From: Minisyncoccia bacterium
GTDB taxonomy: Bacteria; Patescibacteriota; Minisyncoccia; Phycocordibacterales; UBA9973
Length of the DNA: 64,000 nt
Direction: 5' to 3'
NCBI GenBank assembly: GCA_965662335.1
Contig: CBFIGQ010000045.1
Coordinates: 1,156 to 65,155, forward strand
Made by a program: the position numbers and the translations under genes. Below the pieces are notes generated by a model. That model was given only the letters and a program-made list of their open reading frames with translations. It was not told the origin of the DNA and did not search any database. Positions 4,166-49,656 of this stretch are shown here, piece by piece; within the stretch, counting starts at the first letter, position 1; each line of letters begins with the position of its first letter.

Positions 4166-4237
4166 GGCCCTATCGTCTAACGGTTAGGACGCCGGCTTTT
4201 CAAGCCGTTAATCGGGGTTCGATTCCCCGTAGGGTCA
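4166..4237 (+). tRNA. tRNA-Glu (anticodon UUC)
   Basis: Hand-folded: acceptor GGCCCTA/TAGGGTC, D-arm GTCT-AACGGTTA-GGAC, anticodon loop TTTTCAA, T-arm CGGGG-TTCGATT-CCCCG. Close to canonical bacterial tRNA-Glu. Confidence 0.75.
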
Positions 4238-5763
4238 CAATCAGATACTCGCTCAAAAAGTTGCCCCGCGCGCTGGCGCGCGATGGTGGTGAGTGGGTGG
4301 TGAAAATTCTCGCCCGCCTTGCGGGCACAAGCGAATTCTGTGGGTGGGCAAAATGAGACAGAGACGGACTTGTCCCGCAATTGCGGGTTCGTTCCAATTT
4401 TTTTGAAATAATCACGAATTTCAAAAAAATTATCAGTGGTCTGCAATTGCGTGGCTTTTTTCATATCCAAAATCCATTCCCGCAAGGGTTCGACCCAATT
4501 CTTTCTTTCTGCTCGGGCGGAATCGATTTTTTGAGCGAGAGACACTTTTTGTTTCAAAAGCTCGTTTTTCTTTGCGAGATAGTTTTCTTTCGGTATATCG
4601 TCATCTAAATACAAATTCACCAATTCATCGAGCTTTTGTTCTATCTCTCGCTCATTGTCTTTCATCCGCCCGAGCATGCTTCCCGACGAGGATTTTTCAC
4701 TTTTGTCCCATTCGTCAGTTTTGTTTAGCATACACTCAATCCACTCGTCGGGAAGAACGATTTTTTGAAGCTGTTCCTGTAATTGCAGAACAAGTGAATC
4801 TTCTCGCAAATACCCTTGCTCACATTTTCCTTTCTTTTTTGTGCAACGATAATAACGATATTTAGTACCGAAACGATTGGTTGACCATTGAGCAGTGATC
4901 ATGCTTCCACATTCACCACATTTAAATAATCCAGTGAAAGGAAAATTGTGGCTTTTCTTTGATTTGCGAGGATGAGAGCGTTCTTGCAATCTTTTCTGCA
5001 CAGCTTCAAATAGATCGTGAGAAAGAATTGGCGCAAAGCTTCCGTTAAAATACTCATCTTTGTGTTTCGTAAGCCCGAGATATGCTTTGTTCGTGAGTAT
5101 TCTTGATACGGAAGCTTTGCCAAGTGGCGTTCCGGACTTTGTCGTCACTCCATGCAAAGCCAAAAAATCCGACAATGATTCAAGGCTGTGATGACCTTTT
5201 GAATATTCTTTAAAAGCGCGGACGATAATTTTAGATTTCACCACATCAGGTTCAATATTTCTCGTTTTTGGATTGTTCACATAACCAAAAGGCGCTTTTG
5301 TAAGCCATTCACCACGGCGGAGTTTTTGGCGGATTCCACGCTCAACATTTTGTTTTAAATCGTCAGAATAATATTTAGATTGTCCGAACGCCACTTGAAG
5401 CATAAATAGCCCTTGCGGGGTTGGTTCAAACCAAAATGTCGGAAAGCGTAAAGAATTGATTTTGGTCGTGTCTACGGCGTAGATGATGCGCCCACCATCG
5501 ATACTATTGCGAGCAAGTCGATCAGGATGCCATGCGAGAATTCCCACACCATCCATATTTTCTATTTTCCCCATCATCTCGCCGAACTTTTCACGACCAG
5601 GTTTCTTTGCGCTTTTCGACTCTGTAAATTCTTCAAGAATTTGCAGATTTTCTTTACGCGCAAATTCCCGAAGCTCAAAAAGCTGTGCCTCAATAGACAT
5701 AACTTGTTTATCGTCATCTTCTGTTGATTTGCGAGCGTAAAGAAAATATTTTGGTTTATTCAT
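4177..5763 (-). CDS. large serine recombinase (phage-integrase/TnpX-type LSR); 3' end ill-defined
   Basis: N-terminal resolvase domain YARKSTEDDDKQ...SIEAQ (Ser nucleophile) and HPDRLARN. Recombinase domain, zinc ribbon CGECG...C..C, and a C-terminal coiled coil. ORF has no stop until inside antisense tRNA-Glu; the likely real end is near 4380. Confidence 0.85.
   Translation of the reverse strand: MNKPKYFLYARKSTEDDDKQVMSIEAQLFELREFARKENLQILEEFTESKSAKKPGREKFGEMMGKIENMDGVGILAWHPDRLARNSIDGGRIIYAVDTTKINSLRFPTFWFEPTPQGLFMLQVAFGQSKYYSDDLKQNVERGIRQKLRRGEWLTKAPFGYVNNPKTRNIEPDVVKSKIIVRAFKEYSKGHHSLESLSDFLALHGVTTKSGTPLGKASVSRILTNKAYLGLTKHKDEYFNGSFAPILSHDLFEAVQKRLQERSHPRKSKKSHNFPFTGLFKCGECGSMITAQWSTNRFGTKYRYYRCTKKKGKCEQGYLREDSLVLQLQEQLQKIVLPDEWIECMLNKTDEWDKSEKSSSGSMLGRMKDNEREIEQKLDELVNLYLDDDIPKENYLAKKNELLKQKVSLAQKIDSARAERKNWVEPLREWILDMKKATQLQTTDNFFEIRDYFKKIGTNPQLRDKSVSVSFCPPTEFACARKAGENFHHPLTTIARQRAGQLFERVSDCDPTGNRTPINGLKSRRPNR
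4243..4373. repeat. IRa-L: ~130-bp inverted repeat, partner of 5796-5928
   Basis: Reverse complement aligns by eye with 5796-5928 at roughly 90% identity with one ~11-bp indel. GC-rich and contains hairpins gcgcgc-tgg-cgcgcg and gcccgc-ctt-gcgggc. Confidence 0.8.
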
Positions 5764-5795
5764 ATATATCTTTAGATTATGAAAAAAGAATAGTC

Positions 5796-5928
5796 CGTAT
5801 TTGTCTCATTTCTTGCCTTTCTGCCCACCCACCGAATTCGATTGCGCCCGCACGGCGGGCGAGGATTTTCACCACCCACTCACCACCATCGCGCGACAGC
5901 GCGCGGGGCAACTTTTTGAGCAAGTATC
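5796..5928. repeat. IRa-R: inverted copy of IRa-L, immediately upstream of the recombinase start
   Basis: See IRa-L. It also produces the mirror ORF 5801-5983. Confidence 0.8.
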
Positions 5929-6108
5929 TGATTGTGATGTATTACTAACCTTTGCACGAACTTTTTTTGAACAAGAACACTAACGAATTCCGTCACGGCT
6001 CGGATTACCTCGCCGTTGCGCCCTTAGCCCTCATCGCTTTTCATTCTTGTTTTGTTTGGCGGGGGGATTCTTTTTGAAAAGGTATGGCGATGGGGCTTCG
6101 GGCGGGTA
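5929..6108. repeat. IRb-L: ~180-bp inverted repeat, partner of 11281-11460
   Basis: Reverse complement is near-identical to 11281-11460; only 1-2 mismatches seen by eye. Abuts IRa-R with no spacer. Confidence 0.85.
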
Positions 6109-6164
6109 ATTTAATTATATAACAACTTGGAATATAACACAAAGGAATATATCATAGAATATAT

Positions 6165-6386
6165 ATGAATAAGGCGATTTTTTCCAAAGATCATAAATAT
6201 ACTGTGGAACAGCTAAAAAAGGCACGTGCAGAGGCAGGTTTAGACCAAGTTGAGGTAGCAAAGATGCTTGGTAAAACTCAACCGCACATTTCAAAAATAG
6301 AAGCTGGGCAAAGACGACTTGATATTACGCAACTTAAAGAGTTTGCAAAAATTTATAAAAAATCTTTAACCTACTTCATAAAATAA
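6165..6386 (+). CDS. XRE-family HTH protein, probable R-M controller (C) protein
   Basis: 73-aa HTH_XRE fold (...VEVAKMLGKTQPHISKIEAGQRRL...). Sits directly upstream of, and co-oriented with, the putative endonuclease, as in C-R operons. Confidence 0.6.
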   Translation: MNKAIFSKDHKYTVEQLKKARAEAGLDQVEVAKMLGKTQPHISKIEAGQRRLDITQLKEFAKIYKKSLTYFIK

Positions 6387-6532
6387 TTTATGGCACTTTT
6401 TAAAATAAATAACAATATAGTAAAAAAGATTCTTACAAAAGATTTGGACTTGGAAAAAAATCTCCAAGGGCTTTTCGAAAATAATCTTGAAGAAATTTTA
6501 AACATAGTTTTTCTTGCCCATGAATAAATAAT

Positions 6533-7828
6533 ATGTATAAAATTAATTTACAAAAAACCTTCTTTCTTGCACTAGAAATATCGAGTCATTACAATAAAAG
6601 TTACTACAACACAAATGATTTGGTAAAATTGGCAAATCAATATAAATCTGATTTGGTTAGAACAAGAGTTGATAAAAAGGATTATAAATTTCTAGACGAT
6701 ACAAAATTCGGTGGATTACGAGGAAATTTCTCTACCTTGTTAACATTAAAAGGTTTTGTTAAACGAGGAAATAAAATTATACCTTTTTATTCTTTAGGGA
6801 TGGATGGTCGTATTGTAAATGCTGTAAATAATGGCGAGATAATACTTGATTCTTCTGATTTAACAGCTAATACAAAAAACGAGAGATTAAAAAATCTTCT
6901 TGAAAAAGAAGTATTTTTATCAAAGGTTAGGGAGAATCAGGCGCATATAAAAGTAATGCTTGAGAAAGATTCGGGCAAGCTTGGAATTAAAAGAGATAAT
7001 ATTTTTAAAAAAGATTCAGTCGTTGTAACCGAGAAAGGGCAATATTTTTTGAGATGTCTATTAAATAATTTTATAAATAATAATACAATTGAATACAGTT
7101 TATTTAATTACTGGTCAGGTAAGAAAATCATCAAAAAGAACATGCATATATTGATCAGTATTCCAACGATAGATAATTCTTGGGCTGAACTATATGCAAT
7201 TAAATTTGAAGATCTTATAAAAAACAAACCGATGTATTTGATGGTCTCTGTTGATACAAAAAAGTGCATGGATAGATCTGGTAATATTTATAATTTATAT
7301 AGTTTAGAACAAGCAAAGAATGAATTTTCTGATGGAAATGCAAATATAAATGAAAGATTATCTTATAATTGGAAAGATTTAATAAATAAAGAATGTAGTG
7401 ATGAGATTGAAATTCAAAAAGAGGTAAAACAACAGGAAACATGGATTTTTATTGATAAATTTCTACAATGGAAAAAACATTTTTCAATTGATGAAAAAGA
7501 TGTTGTTGATTACATAGTATCTAGTTCTGGTGGATGTGATGTTTTATTGAAATATTCAGGTGGAACAACACAAAAGCTAGAATTAGAACACGACTGGAAA
7601 AATTATATAGATCACAAACATCCTGAAAATAACGCATGGTCTGGTGCTTGGTTATTTGCCGAAGAAGAGTGGAATCCAGATCTAATAATTAAATTGTTTG
7701 AACCGCTAAAGAAAAAACATGGTGATAGAATACCAGATGTCTTCTTGTGCTTCGAAAACGGAGAAAGAAAAGCCTATAGAGCAAATTGGGGTAATAAAAA
7801 TTTCACTGAGCTATCTTTGTCTTTTTAA
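6533..7828 (+). CDS. putative Type II restriction endonuclease (hypothetical, very AT-rich)
   Basis: Positioned as R in a C-R / M-M convergent arrangement. C-terminal PDVFLCFENGERK fits a PD-x8-ExK nuclease motif. No other recognisable domain. Confidence 0.4.
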   Translation: MYKINLQKTFFLALEISSHYNKSYYNTNDLVKLANQYKSDLVRTRVDKKDYKFLDDTKFGGLRGNFSTLLTLKGFVKRGNKIIPFYSLGMDGRIVNAVNNGEIILDSSDLTANTKNERLKNLLEKEVFLSKVRENQAHIKVMLEKDSGKLGIKRDNIFKKDSVVVTEKGQYFLRCLLNNFINNNTIEYSLFNYWSGKKIIKKNMHILISIPTIDNSWAELYAIKFEDLIKNKPMYLMVSVDTKKCMDRSGNIYNLYSLEQAKNEFSDGNANINERLSYNWKDLINKECSDEIEIQKEVKQQETWIFIDKFLQWKKHFSIDEKDVVDYIVSSSGGCDVLLKYSGGTTQKLELEHDWKNYIDHKHPENNAWSGAWLFAEEEWNPDLIIKLFEPLKKKHGDRIPDVFLCFENGERKAYRANWGNKNFTELSLSF

Positions 7829-7829
7829 T

Positions 7830-8576
7830 TTAACTTTTTATATTTAGAACTTTTACTCCATCTATATCTTTTAATCGCTTTTTCATTATTTTAAAGAATT
7901 CTTGATCGTTTTCTATGTTTATAGAATTTCTTTTCATAGAGTCCGCAACTTCTGCTAAAGTCCCGCTACCAGCGAAGCAATCAAGTACTAGATCTTTTTC
8001 GTTAGTAAAAATTCTCATTAAATGTTCAATTACCTTTTTGGGTTTTTGTGTTGGATGTGCTGTTCTTTCTCTTCCCATACAAATTGGTGTTTGAATAAAA
8101 TTATGCATTTCATTTTGCTTTGAAAAGTTAAATGTATAAGATATTTTTTTATTATCAAAACCATGTGTAGCCCACAAAATAGCTTCACATGAAGACAAGA
8201 AACCGTTCTTCCTAATTTGTGGGGCGGGATTTGTTTTGTGCCAAATTATTGTAGCGTGATGTTTAAATCCTAATCTTTCATATATACGCTTTATATCACT
8301 TATATATTCCAATTTTGAAAATACTAAAAGATTTCCATTTTCCTTTAAAATAGGAGTAATCAATTTCAACCATTCTTCGGTAAATTTCAAGTAATCATTG
8401 TTGCTAAAATAATCCCATTTTCCAAAATCGGAAGACCTTGCTTTTCTACCCTTGAGAATCTTGGTATTTTTATTTGCTGTATTATAGGGTGGATCGACAA
8501 TAACAGCATCAATTTTGTTTTTTATTGTTGGCAATACTTTAAACACATCGCCTTTTATTAAATAATGTTTATTCAT
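7830..8576 (-). CDS. DNA amino-methyltransferase (beta class, N6A or N4C)
   Basis: Motif IV DPPYN comes before motif I FAGSGT (beta-class order). HPTQKP motif present. Confidence 0.8.
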   Translation of the reverse strand: MNKHYLIKGDVFKVLPTIKNKIDAVIVDPPYNTANKNTKILKGRKARSSDFGKWDYFSNNDYLKFTEEWLKLITPILKENGNLLVFSKLEYISDIKRIYERLGFKHHATIIWHKTNPAPQIRKNGFLSSCEAILWATHGFDNKKISYTFNFSKQNEMHNFIQTPICMGRERTAHPTQKPKKVIEHLMRIFTNEKDLVLDCFAGSGTLAEVADSMKRNSINIENDQEFFKIMKKRLKDIDGVKVLNIKS

Positions 8577-8582
8577 ATAATT

Positions 8583-26817: not shown

Positions 26818-27288
26818 ATGATTCAATCAATAGTTGGTGATCCGACCGTAACAGGTCTCTTGCTCGCGATGCTGCTCGGTATGATACTGGGGGTGGAACG
26901 TTTCCTTGCTCACAAAACTGCAGGAATGCGCACCTACACATTTGTCTCACTTGGAGCTGCACTTTTTATTATTATCTCCCGGATAGTAGCGATCGAGTTC
27001 CCATCAACTATTGGGTATGATCATCACATTGCAGCACAGATCATTGCAGCTGCAGGATTCCTCGGCGTTGGTGCTATCTTTCATAGCAATAAGCACATCA
27101 GCGGTATCACTACCGCTTCCGGTCTCTGGGTTGCCGCAGGTATTGGTATGGCATGTGGATTTGGCTTCTATAAGCTAGCAATCATTGTGACCCTTCTTGC
27201 ACTTTTTACGTTTATTGTGATGTGGTTTCTCGAAGAGCAAATTCGCAAGCTCCCCATCACACAATCAGAAGATCAAGACCCTCTCTAG
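26818..27288 (+). CDS. MgtC/SapB family membrane protein
   Basis: ...LGMILGVERFLAHKTAGMRTY... MgtC signature. Confidence 0.7.
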   Translation: MIQSIVGDPTVTGLLLAMLLGMILGVERFLAHKTAGMRTYTFVSLGAALFIIISRIVAIEFPSTIGYDHHIAAQIIAAAGFLGVGAIFHSNKHISGITTASGLWVAAGIGMACGFGFYKLAIIVTLLALFTFIVMWFLEEQIRKLPITQSEDQDPL

Positions 27289-27312
27289 GCAGATACGCAA
27301 GCATTCGCCCCA

Positions 27313-29106
27313 TTGGGGCTTTTTTGCTATGATCGGGGGATGAAATATAAGACTGAATGGAATTTGGGGCTTTTGTACAAAAATGAGAAAGATCCACAAA
27401 TAGAGAAGGATATGCATGCCATTGAAATGGCATGTGCTTCATTTGAAAAAAAATACAGAAATAAAGATTTTACATCTAGCTCTATGAGACTATTGTCTGC
27501 ACTAAAGGACTATGAGCTTTTTTTATCACAATCTACGTATAAGCCATTATGGTACTTTGGGTTAATAAAAAGTATCCAGACTAACAATACGTATGCAGAA
27601 GGAATGGAGCTGAAATTCAATGAACGCCAACGGAACGCTTTCAATAAAGTATTATTTTTTGAGATTTCGCTGGGTAGGCTTCCTGTATTAAAACAAAAGC
27701 AATATATAAAGGATCCAAAACTTGCTCATTTTAGATACTACTTAAAAAAAGTATTTACTCGTTCTAAACATACTCTAGATGAAAAAGAAGAAAAAATCCT
27801 TTCACTGGTATCACTGCCATCAGAGAAAATGTGGCTTGATGCACAAACTAAATTGTTGAGCGCACAGCAAATAGAGTATAAGGATAAATATATTTCACTT
27901 TCTGAAGCTTCAGAGTTGTATACTTCGCTACGAGAAAAATCCGAAAGATGGCAGTTGTATCAAAAGATTATCGCTTCACGAAAAAACACGGCGTTTCTCG
28001 CGGAGGCAGAGCTGAATGCCCTCTATACGTCAAAAAAAATTTCCGACACACTACGTGGTTACAAAAGACCATATACTCAGACATTAGTTAATTATGAAAA
28101 CGATGAAAAGGAAATAGAACATCTTATTTCTGAAACAACCAGATTATATTCAATAAGTAAAAAGTTTTACGCACTTCATAAAAAATTAATTAACGACAAG
28201 AACATGACTGTGGCAGATTTGTATGTTGAATTAGGAACCTTTAAAAGGGAATTTACTTTTAATGAATCAGTATTATTAGTGAAAAATGCATTTTCAAGAT
28301 TTGATCCTAAATATGCAGATTTACTTGATACCTATTTACAAAATGGGCAGATAGATGTGTTTCCTCGAGCACATAAACAAGGCGGTGGATATTGTATAGG
28401 TCTTGGAACTTTACCAGTGTACATATTTTTGAATCACATCAATAATTTGAAGTCAGTAGAAACACTTGCACATGAAATGGGGCATGCAATTCATACCGAG
28501 CTTAGTAAGCCGCTCGATCCTCTCTATAATGAATATTCAACATCTGTCGCAGAGGTCGCGAGTATATTCTTTGAGCAGTTCGTTTCAGATGAAATATTTG
28601 AAACAGCAACAGATGATGAAAAGATCACCTTACTCCATAGCCGCATCAACAGAGATGTAATGAGCGTATTTAGGCAAGTGGCTTGCTTTAATTGTGAATT
28701 AGAACTCCATGAGCGCATACGTTCGACTGGATATGTTACAAAAGAAGAAATGGCACAGATAATGCAAAAACACCTAGCTGCATATTTAGGTCCTGCAGTA
28801 CATATAACCGAAGATGATGGTTATATATTTACCTCATGGCCTCATCTACGATTTTCTTTTTATGTGTATACGTATGCATATGGCCTTTTAGTAAGCCGAG
28901 CGCTTTATGAAAAATGGAAATTAGACAATTCCTTTAAATCAAAAGTCGAACAATTTCTTTCCGCAGGAGGGTCTATGAGTCCTAAGGATATTTTTAAAAG
29001 CATTGGTATTAGTACGGACAAATCATTCTTTGAAGCCGGGTTAAAAGCAATCGAAGCTGACATACAGCGACTAGAAAAACTAGCTAAAAAGCAGAAGCTT
29101 ATATAA
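27313..29106 (+). CDS. pepF: oligoendopeptidase F (M3B)
   Basis: HEMGHAIH HExxH zinc motif in an ~600-aa M3-family context. Confidence 0.8.
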   Translation: MGLFCYDRGMKYKTEWNLGLLYKNEKDPQIEKDMHAIEMACASFEKKYRNKDFTSSSMRLLSALKDYELFLSQSTYKPLWYFGLIKSIQTNNTYAEGMELKFNERQRNAFNKVLFFEISLGRLPVLKQKQYIKDPKLAHFRYYLKKVFTRSKHTLDEKEEKILSLVSLPSEKMWLDAQTKLLSAQQIEYKDKYISLSEASELYTSLREKSERWQLYQKIIASRKNTAFLAEAELNALYTSKKISDTLRGYKRPYTQTLVNYENDEKEIEHLISETTRLYSISKKFYALHKKLINDKNMTVADLYVELGTFKREFTFNESVLLVKNAFSRFDPKYADLLDTYLQNGQIDVFPRAHKQGGGYCIGLGTLPVYIFLNHINNLKSVETLAHEMGHAIHTELSKPLDPLYNEYSTSVAEVASIFFEQFVSDEIFETATDDEKITLLHSRINRDVMSVFRQVACFNCELELHERIRSTGYVTKEEMAQIMQKHLAAYLGPAVHITEDDGYIFTSWPHLRFSFYVYTYAYGLLVSRALYEKWKLDNSFKSKVEQFLSAGGSMSPKDIFKSIGISTDKSFFEAGLKAIEADIQRLEKLAKKQKLI

Positions 29107-43069: not shown

Positions 43070-44527
43070 ATGGCATCGACTGAAGAACTGCGAAATGAAC
43101 GGCTGAAAAAGAAGGCACTACTTGAGTCAAAAGGTATTAATCCATACCCGGCGACTACTGCACGCACTCACCCCATAGATATATTTATTGACGAGTTCTC
43201 ACTTCTTGAGGAGCCCAAGGAAGTTGTCACACTTGCAGGGCGCATCATGAGTAAGCGCGGACAGGGTGGGCTCGCATTTGCAGATATATTTGATGGCACG
43301 GGCACGATGCAGCTCTTTTTAAAGAGTGATGAGATGGACTCCGACCTGTATCAGCTCTGGAATGACACAACTGATGTCGGTGACTTCGTTGAGGCAACAG
43401 GTATTGCATACACGACCAAGCGTGGTGAAAAGGCGCTCTTTGTATCGGGTTGGAGTATGCTTACCAAGTCACTCCTTCCGCTTCCTGAGAAATGGCATGG
43501 CCTCACTGATGATGATGAGCGCTACCGCAAGCGATACCTCGACATCCTCACCAACCCAGAGCTCCGCGCAATGTTTGAGAAGAAGGCGAAGTTTTGGGAC
43601 GTGACGCGCACCTTCATGAAGGAGCACGGATTTATGGAAGTCGAAACGCCGACGCTCGAGGTCACGACTGGCGGTGCCGAGGCCAATCCATTCAAGACAT
43701 TCCACAAGGACTTTGCCCTCGATGTGTTCATGCGCATCTCAGTCGGCGAGCTCTGGCAGAAGCGCCTGATGGCAGCCGGGTTTCCCAAGACCTTTGAGAT
43801 CGGACGAGTGTACCGCAACGAAGGAAGTAGTCCTGATCATCTCCAGGAGTTTACCAACATGGAGTTCTACTGGGCATATGCCGACTATGAAAAGGGTATG
43901 AGACTTGTGGAGGAACTCTATAAGCGTATCGCGACGGAAGTGTTTGGTACGACAACATTTACTACCCGAGGACATACCTTTGACCTAAACGATGAGTGGA
44001 AGAAAATAAACTACGTACAGGAAATAGAGAAACAAACTGGTATCAATGTACTCGATGCCTCAGAATCCGACATGACTGCAAAGCTCGACGAACTCGGTGT
44101 GAAATACACCGGTACCAACAAGGAGCGCCTGACTGATACGCTCTGGAAGTACTGCCGGAAAAATATATCTGGTCCTGCATTTCTCGTGCGCGTACCCAAG
44201 CTTGTATCTCCGCTTGCAAAGTCTGCCTCAGATGATCCTCGTGTGACTGAACGATTCCAAGTACTTATTGCAGGATCTGAAGTTGGAAATGGCTTCAGCG
44301 AGCTCAATGACCCAGTTGATCAGCGCGCACGATTTACACAACAGCAAGAGATGATCGAGCGGGGAGACGACGAAGCGATGATGCCTGAATGGGAATTCGT
44401 CGACATGCTCGAGCACGGTATGCCGCCGACGTGCGGATTTGGATTTGGCGAGCGACTCTTTGCGTTCCTTGTTGACAAACCGCTCCGCGAAACGCAGTTG
44501 TTTCCATTGCTGAAACCAAGAGAGTAG
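43070..44527 (+). CDS. lysS: lysine--tRNA ligase (class II)
   Basis: Class II motifs and the ...FGFGERLFAFLVDKP... C-terminus typical of LysRS. Confidence 0.9.
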   Translation: MASTEELRNERLKKKALLESKGINPYPATTARTHPIDIFIDEFSLLEEPKEVVTLAGRIMSKRGQGGLAFADIFDGTGTMQLFLKSDEMDSDLYQLWNDTTDVGDFVEATGIAYTTKRGEKALFVSGWSMLTKSLLPLPEKWHGLTDDDERYRKRYLDILTNPELRAMFEKKAKFWDVTRTFMKEHGFMEVETPTLEVTTGGAEANPFKTFHKDFALDVFMRISVGELWQKRLMAAGFPKTFEIGRVYRNEGSSPDHLQEFTNMEFYWAYADYEKGMRLVEELYKRIATEVFGTTTFTTRGHTFDLNDEWKKINYVQEIEKQTGINVLDASESDMTAKLDELGVKYTGTNKERLTDTLWKYCRKNISGPAFLVRVPKLVSPLAKSASDDPRVTERFQVLIAGSEVGNGFSELNDPVDQRARFTQQQEMIERGDDEAMMPEWEFVDMLEHGMPPTCGFGFGERLFAFLVDKPLRETQLFPLLKPRE

Positions 44528-44677
44528 TGCGTTCGGTTTCTTGACTTTTTGAAAATAGAGTCAAGCAAGGACCGTCCTTGCTGGACTCAAAAGATCGTTG
44601 ACTTCTCCCAAAACCTCATAGTATACTAGGCATACTATGCAGAAAAGGGATAAAATGCATAGTACAATATACATATT

Positions 44678-49487: not shown

Positions 49488-49606
49488 CTTGAGCACGGCA
49501 TGCCGCCGACCTGCGGATTTGGATTTGGCGAGCGACTCTTTGCATTCCTTGTCGACAAGCCGCTTCGCGAAACACAGTTGTTTCCACTGCTAAAACCTAA
49601 GGAGTA
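49488..49606 (+). pseudogene. diverged duplicate of the last ~40 codons of lysS (island boundary/att remnant)
   Basis: Aligns to 44408-44527 at roughly 90% nt identity by eye. Encodes ...EHGMPPTCGFGFGERLFAFLVDKPLRETQLFPLLKPKE* with mostly synonymous differences. Confidence 0.7.
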
Positions 49607-49656
49607 GTATTGACTAAAAAAATATTTCATGGTATTGTTTCAAAAAAATAAGAACC

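Follow-up and report, generated by a model that had tools for sequence, protein, structure and literature searches.

Large serine recombinases (LSRs) are prized as tools for genome engineering, being simple and unidirectional, and the direction of their reaction is thought to be set by separate recombination directionality factor (RDF) proteins. The 3' ends of tRNA and transfer-messenger RNA (tmRNA) genes are typical targets of tyrosine integrases, not of serine integrases. Broussard et al. 2013 are said to have described integration-dependent immunity in mycobacteriophages of the BPs/Brujita type, with the phage attachment site (attP) in the 3' end of a regulatory gene. The suicidal integrases of the SSV1 type have been treated as a form of directionality control and are stated to be known only in archaea (PMC8371274, a 2021 review). 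The present analysis concerns a stretch of 64,000 nucleotides (64 kb) from a Minisyncoccia bacterium (contig CBFIGQ010000045.1, positions 1,156 to 65,155), here called the window, in which an LSR gene lies against the 3' end of tRNA-Glu. Positions 4239-11455 of the window are an integrated island between tRNA-Glu and an OmdA-like gene. As read from the assembled sequences, the LSR gene spans attP, and integration swaps a conserved tail of the protein for antisense-tRNA sequence.

The argument leans on the following features of the window. IRa and IRb are two inverted repeats, each with a left (L) and a right (R) arm, and ORF stands for open reading frame.

4166-4238, plus strand: tRNA-Glu(UUC), called by ARAGORN; Rfam tRNA at 62.9 bits (end 4237)
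4177-5763, minus strand: LSR ORF of 528 aa as found in the integrated state; its final ~20 codons are antisense tRNA
4235-4240, plus strand: core copy 1, TCACAA; site 1, attL-like, at the boundary of the tRNA and IRa-L
4235-4370: IRa-L, the P' arm, from the repeat search
5792-5937: IRa-R, which repeats the P' arm and the LSR 3' end in inverted orientation, from the repeat search
5801-5983, plus strand: open fragment at site 2, repeating the C-terminal ~60 codons of the LSR, then the native tail CDVLLTFARTFFEQEH and a stop codon
5932-5937, minus strand: core copy 2, TTGTGA; centre of site 2, IRb(rc)-core-IRa, inverted and attP-like
5932-6107: IRb-L, the P arm, pairing with 11280-11455 over 176 nt at 99%
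6165-6386, plus strand: small Xre-type helix-turn-helix (HTH) gene, Pfam HTH_3 E = 3.7e-15, divergent from the LSR gene
11280-11455: IRb-R, the P arm of the right junction (attR-like), with the tail codons on the minus strand at 11404-11454
11450-11455, plus strand: core copy 3, TCACAA; site 3, attR-like, at the boundary of IRb-R and host, the island end
11464-11705, plus strand: host OmdA/YdeI-like gene, the B' flank, Pfam PF13376 E = 1.6e-16

Core copies 1 and 3 are direct and bound the island (7.2 kb), and copy 2 of the 6-bp core is inverted relative to both. At the left junction the bacterial arm (B) is formed by the 3' end of tRNA-Glu; site 1 has the composition of an attL (B-core-P') and site 3 that of an attR (P-core-B'). 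On the minus strand site 2 reads P-core-P', which makes it a complete attP-like junction whose orientation is opposite to that of the island ends. From this make-up of half-sites it follows that both arms are duplicated, the P' arm as IRa and the P arm as IRb. The inverted-repeat search pairs 4235-4353 with 5819-5937 (119 nt, 93% identity) and continues with 4351-4370 and 5792-5811 (20 nt, 90%). The pairing is split into two pieces by a 10-nt insertion in the right arm (~5812-5821), located between the F and C codons of ..SVSFCPPTEF.. IRa-L encodes LSR residues from ~465 onward, and IRa-R lies 28 nt upstream of the LSR start codon. IRa-R abuts IRb-L, the hexamer TTGTGA being common to both. 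The first 17 codons of IRb-L (5933-5983) are the conserved LSR tail in the LSR frame. IRa and IRb are the only inverted pairs of at least 40 nt in the whole window, which excludes chance as their origin. A short common core at the island ends is a feature of LSR elements and is found here as the direct 6-bp core, yet the inverted attP copy adds repeats of 136 and 176 bp, which is atypical.

An earlier note on this DNA had reported inverted repeats around the LSR gene and an integrated element anchored at tRNA-Glu, and had held that such long repeats are not ordinary products of attL/attR formation. All three statements stand, the last through the extra inverted attP copy at site 2. Several of its boundaries are replaced: IRa-L, rather than starting 5 bp past the tRNA, takes in its final 3-4 nt, with TCACAA at 4235-4240; the IRa arms are 4235-4370 and 5792-5937, the right one having been put at 5796-5928; and the LSR ORF, thought to end at ~4380, runs from 5763 to 4177, the crossing of the junction having been missed. 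The repeats had been taken for the sites of an invertible segment or for terminal inverted repeats (TIRs), and are instead the arms of an inverted second attP region that includes the LSR 3' end.

An arrangement of two TIR-bounded transposons side by side, an LSR unit and a cargo unit, agrees with each unit being enclosed in its own long terminal inverted repeats. The same 6 bp are common to both units at their junction (5932-5937), target-site duplications are absent, the outer ends consist of the tRNA-matching core, transposition via TIRs is not a reaction of serine recombinases, and the pairing of LSR with cargo and the position at tRNA 3' ends are invariant. This explanation is already contradicted and is hardly credible. 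A TIR-bounded transposon or insertion sequence was rejected as a class on the same grounds of missing target-site duplication, shared core at the outer ends and position at tRNA/tmRNA 3' ends.

The LSR ORF has no stop near 4380 and reads through IRa-L into antisense tRNA-Glu, with its stop at 4177. The Pfam profiles Resolvase (PF00239, residues 7-153, E = 6e-20, the N-terminal catalytic domain), Recombinase (PF07508, E = 4e-13) and Zn_ribbon_recom (PF13408, E = 8e-12) all match the protein, and confirm the assignment made in the earlier note. In an alignment of 24 sequences the YARKS motif with S13 and R11 is invariant, as are C282, C285, C307 and C314. An AlphaFold2 model, run on a native-tail homologue with a 61-sequence alignment, has long helices at 339-386 and 392-419 (coiled-coil insertion). 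By its domains the window protein is thus a bona fide large serine recombinase. It resembles SprA/YokA and A118 Int weakly but significantly (E = 1e-7 and 4e-4), and no database record of the exact protein was found. LSRs catalyse attP x attB integration and need an RDF for excision, and the window protein may do likewise.

Database homologues of the window LSR number more than 6000. Among the best 120, identity is 64-94% and nearly all lengths fall at ~515-530 aa; the few homologues with a source name are from Patescibacteria. A genome scan with one genome per species gave 80 loci, all from Patescibacteria metagenome-assembled genomes. In these assemblies the layout of the window recurs in ~70 loci with LSRs 65-95% identical, and again in a clade that is ~40% identical. 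The order of the element is tRNA/tmRNA 3' end, core, IRa, LSR, IRa', core', IRb, cargo, IRb', core and host. An inverted pair of 100-155 nt around the LSR was found in 60/80 genome loci and the window; the remaining loci are mostly partial, or have lost an arm at the contig end. The LSR 3' arm lies against the antisense 3' end of an ARAGORN-called tRNA or tmRNA in 66/80 loci, the targets being Glu (37), Ala (11), Arg (4), tmRNA (3), Ile (3), Gly (2), Ser (2) and Leu, Val and Pro (1 each). The core co-varies with the target, in that the repeat finishes with 4-6 nt that fit the end of the respective tRNA (tgtga, tgtgg, tgtgc, tgtcc, gcgga), and the inverted internal core copy has the same nucleotides as this target-matching end. 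Beyond the upstream IRa arm the sequence is always ..CCTTTGCGCGAACTTTTTT.., the start of IRb. Among the loci with sufficient sequence, 11 have a second inverted pair (134-265 nt, 95.5-100%) around a cargo of 1.4-8.9 kb, and in 10/11 (L002, L019, L030, L041, L043, L046, L061, L074, L075, L078) the distal IRb arm ends in the same core, beyond which lies host DNA. In many contigs the break falls 45-180 nt past IRa, within IRb, as expected from perfect repeats. An assembly artefact as the source of the layout was rejected on its recurrence in ~70 independent assemblies.

The second LSR clade (~40% identical) lies against tRNA-Ser, with inverted repeats of 120-122 nt and 99% identity around the gene. 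Its LSR genes, at 6396-8045 of L074 and near the contig end of L015 on the reverse strand, read into antisense tRNA-Ser and have a related P-arm tail. In L074, elements of both clades stand back to back. In L083 (11530-21560), a 640-kb contig, an AT-rich island takes the place of the tRNA after the LSR 3' arm and core. Its genes include ResIII, SLFN/AlbA, methyltransferase, HTH_17 and a further serine recombinase, and it probably represents a second element that entered at the same site. The P arm of L035 (~9800-9831) is cut 7 nt past the core, with TCTAATC and then unrelated sequence, and looks like a degenerate solo LSR module without cargo. No account was found in the literature of LSRs with a mirrored attP or of tRNA-targeting LSR islands in Patescibacteria, and the island family is widespread in this group and apparently undescribed.

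The attP form of the ORF was built in silico by joining the LSR gene, its 3' arm and the core to the P arm found at site 2, which gives the sequence expected in an excised circle or a flipped module. In ~50/54 loci analysed this ORF stops 14-18 codons past the core, after the conserved peptide C-[DEG]-x-[IL]-[IL]-[TS]-F-A-R-T-[FY]-F-E-[QN].. and a stop. The attP form is ~517-536 aa long, mostly 520-528, and the integrated form is 510-596 aa, with tails that depend on the target. In the window the native tail CDVLLTFARTFFEQEH with its stop codon is coded at 5933-5983 and mirrored at 11454-11404; the native C-terminal peptide is ..TFARTFFEQEH and the alternative one ..PTGNRTPINGLK. Among 38 unique P arms aligned in register the positional entropy is 0.64, 0.55 and 1.01 at codon positions 1, 2 and 3. 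The LSR frame has no stop before codon 11 in 38/38 of these arms, whereas the other two frames have stops in 24-29. The distant ~40%-identical clade has the same tail motif (..VRMYFGQ.., ..IRTFFE..). The attP thus lies inside the ORF, as in the SSV1-type suicidal module, and integrated copies end in antisense tRNA instead of the native tail.

The linker of ~45 codons inside IRa is poorly conserved and always open; it never holds a stop because the native C-terminus lies beyond the crossover. The fragment at 5801-5983 was considered as a gene of its own and rejected, since it is open in all loci but lacks an in-frame start codon in many. It is a spare 3' gene end and not an independent gene. 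The C-termini of database homologues are translations of the antisense tRNA T-arm, for example ..CDPTGNRTPI.., with GNRT from GGGAATCGAACC, and the P-arm tail itself is carried by ~11/120 database cluster representatives (~9%). Two proteins from two samples of one study, P0180 and P0181, are 527/529 identical up to the core; past it the sequence of one continues as tRNA-Ile antisense and that of the other as the P tail.

The explanation held to be best, and considered probable though well short of certain, is that of an integrative island directed at tRNA genes, with an integrase that in part disrupts its own gene and a mirrored spare attP that makes both modules invertible. The free element would be a circle in which two inverted attP regions separate the LSR segment from the cargo segment. 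Integration via the attP inside the gene would lead to the observed stable state, where the LSR, now convergent with the tRNA, lacks its native tail, which amounts to a partial 'suicide'. A recombination event involving the two IRa arms would then flip the LSR module onto the spare P arm and restore the native ORF, downstream of and co-directional with the tRNA promoter, as in L056 and L082. The flip could take place by RecA-type homologous recombination, which would also account for the homogenisation of the arms, or by a non-canonical LSR reaction at the cores. For the mirrored attP we infer a switching function: it would be a built-in on/off and directionality latch, and probably also an operator between the divergent HTH and LSR genes. 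A further-reaching version is that removal of the tail locks the island, that IRa inversion re-forms an active enzyme driven by the tRNA promoter, that direction is given by topology and a swappable tail with no separate RDF, and that the cassettes can be re-oriented and exchanged. This version is tentative and may well be wrong.

The two copies of each arm evolve in concert, as judged from identities within and between the assembled loci. The outer 115 nt of IRa have a median identity of 99.1% within a locus against 58.8% between loci, and the best match of an IRa arm is its own partner in 58/60 loci. For IRb the identity is 96-100% within loci and 54% between. This contrast implies that the arms are actively homogenised or regenerated. 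The suggestion that IRa is older than IRb or was not homogenised does not extend to the family, where the IRa median is 99% within loci and the 93% of the window is one of the lower values. About half of the loci have an upstream arm that exceeds the downstream one by 6-11 nt; other subfamilies have arms of one length, with identities reaching 100%.

Concerted evolution is also the expected product of gene conversion between inverted repeats, and the repeats could be a neutral relic, a single ancestral inverted duplication of attP that was kept alike by conversion and has no function. The 93% identity of the window IRa shows that decay is possible. The layout has, however, been kept across LSRs only 40% identical, more than 10 targets and very different cargo, the duplicate always ends exactly at the core with frame and stop codon kept, and inverted repeats of this size are normally unstable unless selected. 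A functionless relic is distinctly improbable.

Near the core the P' arm has the conserved motif AAGTWTC-N5-TGTGx (AAGTWTC-N5-TGTGA in IRa-L), and ~25 nt further in there is a GC hairpin with a co-varying stem and UUCG or GCAA loops. The IRa hairpins were considered as intrinsic terminators giving a non-stop mRNA and rejected; the terminator scan was negative and there is coding constraint beyond. Rfam, at the gathering threshold and at E < 1, gave no match in IRa, IRb or the GC-rich element described below, the tRNA being the only match. The pentamer CGAAC occurs in both the P arm and the tRNA arm, starting 24 nt and 18 nt, respectively, from the first TGTGA base. In the A118/LI model the zinc-ribbon motif is ~5 bp further out in attP than in attB half-sites, and the CGAAC offset may, by analogy, echo this shift.

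The orientation of the LSR module is strongly biased, with the LSR 3' end against the tRNA/tmRNA in 66 genome loci and reversed in 1. In L056 the genes tRNA-Val, tRNA-Ser and tRNA-Glu (sense) are directly followed by the insertion-bearing arm and the LSR 5' end. The order in L082 is tRNA-Ile(UAU), core GGACAA, arm, LSR, a different arm, TTGTGA, P arm and cargo, and its LSR ORF is intact and native-tailed, running into the P arm. The two arms of L082 share only 51 nt at 76%, which excludes a mix-up by the assembler. In L005 and L040 the LSR 3' end is joined to the P arm; L040 has an NN scaffold gap and L005 begins inside the upstream arm. In L012 the GC-rich element stands beside the proximal and not the distal IRb arm, which means that the cargo is in the opposite orientation. 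To judge from these contigs, both orientations of the LSR module and of the cargo exist in nature, and the state with the 3' end to the tRNA dominates.

The earlier note had proposed that the recombinase module may be flippable, and had named one arrangement fixed in all relatives as speaking against this. Flipped forms do occur in relatives (L056, L082, and the ~9% alternative tails), and this part is upheld; the ratio of 66 to 1 makes frequent flipping of the hin type unlikely. The arrangement comes close to being fixed (66/80), with flipped exceptions.

A switch like hin, acting on transcription only, would set the LSR behind or against the tRNA promoter by inversion and leave the C-terminal swap irrelevant. 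The recombinase gene is inside a segment flanked by inverted repeats, like hin, and the flipped LSR of L056 and L082 is co-directional and downstream of the tRNA. An irrelevant C-terminus does not agree with the coding constraint on the P-arm tail and with the persistence of that tail in LSRs of only 40% identity. Nor does the protein, a 520-aa LSR, correspond to a ~190-aa invertase with a Fis enhancer, and an orientation of ~66 to 1 is not that of balanced phase variation. Such a purely transcriptional switch is unlikely. The assignment to the Hin/Gin-type invertases was rejected, as size, domains, repeat length and the 66 to 1 orientation all differ.

Two further observations concern the exchange of modules. 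Positions 1-100 and 8391-8490 of L081 have identical IRa and two P arms (TGTGA-CTCTATAC.. and TGTGG-AGTAATTC..), which suggests alternative cargo cassettes beside one LSR, or a circular or tandem form. P0191, P0057 and P0185, from one 90% cluster, have near-identical bodies and different 3' modules (C-terminal ~90 residues, arm and core), so that elements with different tRNA targets seem to swap the 3' end together with attP, as one unit. L081 and P0191 together hint that palindromic-ended modules are exchanged.

Site 2 fills the entire intergenic region between the divergent LSR and HTH genes (5764-6164). The HTH gene (65-82 aa) is the sole cargo gene common to islands with otherwise unrelated cargo, and homologues stand beside the proximal IRb arm, divergent from the LSR, in L002, L030, L046, L061, L075 and L078. 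It is a candidate regulator or directionality factor. Site 2 might then be mainly an operator, where the LSR binds the attP copy and autoregulates itself and the HTH gene, the repeats and their homogenisation being by-products and flipping incidental. The HTH gene as only conserved neighbour and the near-fixed orientation agree with this, and no non-canonical LSR reaction is required. An operator would need ~50 bp and not 310 bp held at 96-100% to the ends, and it leaves unexplained both the 3' gene end that is kept open with its stop codon and the flipped isomers with a restored ORF. As the main role of site 2 an operator is possible but rather doubtful; it is compatible with the self-disrupting, invertible island and not exclusive of it.

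Several points weigh against the explanation by a self-disrupting integrase with a mirrored spare attP. In the window, excision, the circle and inversion are predictions from assembled sequence. The predicted empty site, tRNA-Glu joined to the OmdA gene (..GGGTCACAA directly followed by CACAGGTATG..), had 0 matches in metagenome contigs, and no LSR relatives were found in viral contigs. By the standard rules for LSRs synapsis of attL with attP is disallowed, so that homologous recombination would have to flip the module. With an orientation that is near-fixed (66 to 1), the spare site might not serve flipping at all, and several contigs with a P tail (L005, L040, L081, P0181) are short or could be assembler paths through identical repeats. 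Some copies may be decaying, IRa in the window being only 93% identical and the core being absent at site 3 of L050. In the AlphaFold2 model the body is plausible, residues 458-525 are of low confidence (predicted local distance difference test, pLDDT, <55 from 458), and no structure or docking of the tail was obtained. The promoter scans of IRa-R, IRb and the right end and the terminator scan were uninformative, and no RDF candidate was identified besides the conserved small HTH gene.

The rest of the island consists of cargo and a structured element.

6533-10803: variable cargo, 30-32% GC, differing between relatives
Within 6533-10803, plus strand: 431-aa ORF without assigned function
7830-8576, minus strand: N4/N6 methyltransferase
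8583-10013, minus strand: LexA-S24-methyltransferase fusion, a single 476-aa ORF
10039-10803, plus strand: 254-aa ORF without assigned function
10804-11279, plus strand: GC-rich non-coding structured element of 476 nt (conserved core 10890-11190), from fold and covariation

The cargo of the window is probably a restriction-modification module. The ORF at 8583-10013 has LexA DNA-binding and S24 peptidase domains fused to an N4/N6 DNA methyltransferase; the fusion is unusual and is possibly a self-cleaving, SOS-responsive methylase or restriction-modification controller. The GC-rich element has a fold z-score of -6.9 on the plus strand and -4.6 on the minus strand, and its closing helix of ~27 bp has 6 pairs with compensatory changes. 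The plus strand is favoured by more G-U-compatible variation and by energy (-68 against -55 kcal/mol). In 12-13 loci, of the subfamily closest to the window, the element lies just inside an IRb arm, and it is a candidate non-coding RNA or origin and part of the element backbone.

The free form could be a replicating circle like the yeast 2-micron plasmid, in which inverted repeats allow recombinase-driven fork reversal and copy amplification and from which the integrated copy inherits its repeats. The structured element beside the P arm could then be an origin. The predicted circle has exactly this topology, with two long inverted repeats with sites and two unique segments, and both segments occur in both orientations. 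The cargo lacks any replication gene and can be as small as a single ORF, and LSRs normally do not recombine attP with attP. No circular contig (terminal overlap) was found among 83 loci, and there are no relatives in viral contigs. An amplifying circle is very improbable.

Outside the island, a direct repeat of 121 nt (89%) was found at 44408-44528 and 49488-49608 of the window, 5.1 kb apart. The stretch within this pair has a lower GC (~36-40% at 46-50 kb) and could be another island. A second low-GC patch is located at 27001-29000 (35-39% against a background of ~45%).

The family would be distinctive in an integrase gene rewritten by integration, a mirrored spare attP and a universally conserved target at tRNA/tmRNA 3' ends. 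If confirmed, it would extend the suicidal-integrase principle from archaeal tyrosine to bacterial serine enzymes and would offer a tail-dependent, RDF-free directionality switch as a testable hypothesis. It would also stand as a major carrier of defence genes, restriction-modification systems among them, in Patescibacteria, a group that is poorly understood, and would account for frequent assembly breaks at these loci in their genomes.

Compared with known systems, the window LSR has the same domain order as the LSRs of phages and of integrative and conjugative elements (phiC31, Bxb1, A118/LI, SPbeta SprA, TnpX, CcrAB), with resolvase, recombinase and zinc ribbon domains and a long coiled-coil insertion (helices 339-419 in the AlphaFold2 model). 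Site-specific insertion, a short common core and an integrase gene at the element end are likewise shared. Unlike in these systems, the gene crosses the crossover point, an inverted attP copy is kept in the integrated element and gives inverted repeats of 130-260 bp, the targets are tRNA/tmRNA 3' ends, and no RDF is evident. Hin, Gin and Cin also have a serine recombinase gene in or beside a segment bracketed by inverted repeats. They are, however, ~190-aa invertases with a C-terminal HTH, 26-bp sites, a Fis-bound enhancer and balanced inversion, whereas the window LSR has 524-528 aa, its repeats of 136 and 176 bp are whole att arms ending at a tRNA-matching core, and the unit is strongly biased in orientation and part of an integrative island.

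The yeast 2-micron plasmid (FLP/FRT) has, like the predicted circle, two long inverted repeats with recombination sites and two flippable segments, but belongs to a eukaryote, uses a tyrosine recombinase and has known replication functions, of which none are seen in the window island. In Tn3 and gamma-delta the res site also lies between divergent genes (tnpA/tnpR), with the serine recombinase as a possible repressor; res is single-copy with three subsites and a small resolvase, and is not an inverted duplicate of an integration site. In BPs/Brujita integration likewise changes a C-terminus and hence activity or stability, but there it is the repressor gene that is altered, the integrase belongs to the tyrosine recombinases and there is no inverted duplicate. 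The SSV1-type integrases share attP inside the integrase gene, a tRNA target and disruption of the gene on integration. They are archaeal tyrosine recombinases whose gene is split in two, whereas in the bacterial serine recombinase of the window family only the last ~16 codons are exchanged and, unlike in the SSV1 type, a mirrored spare copy of the missing gene end is carried along.

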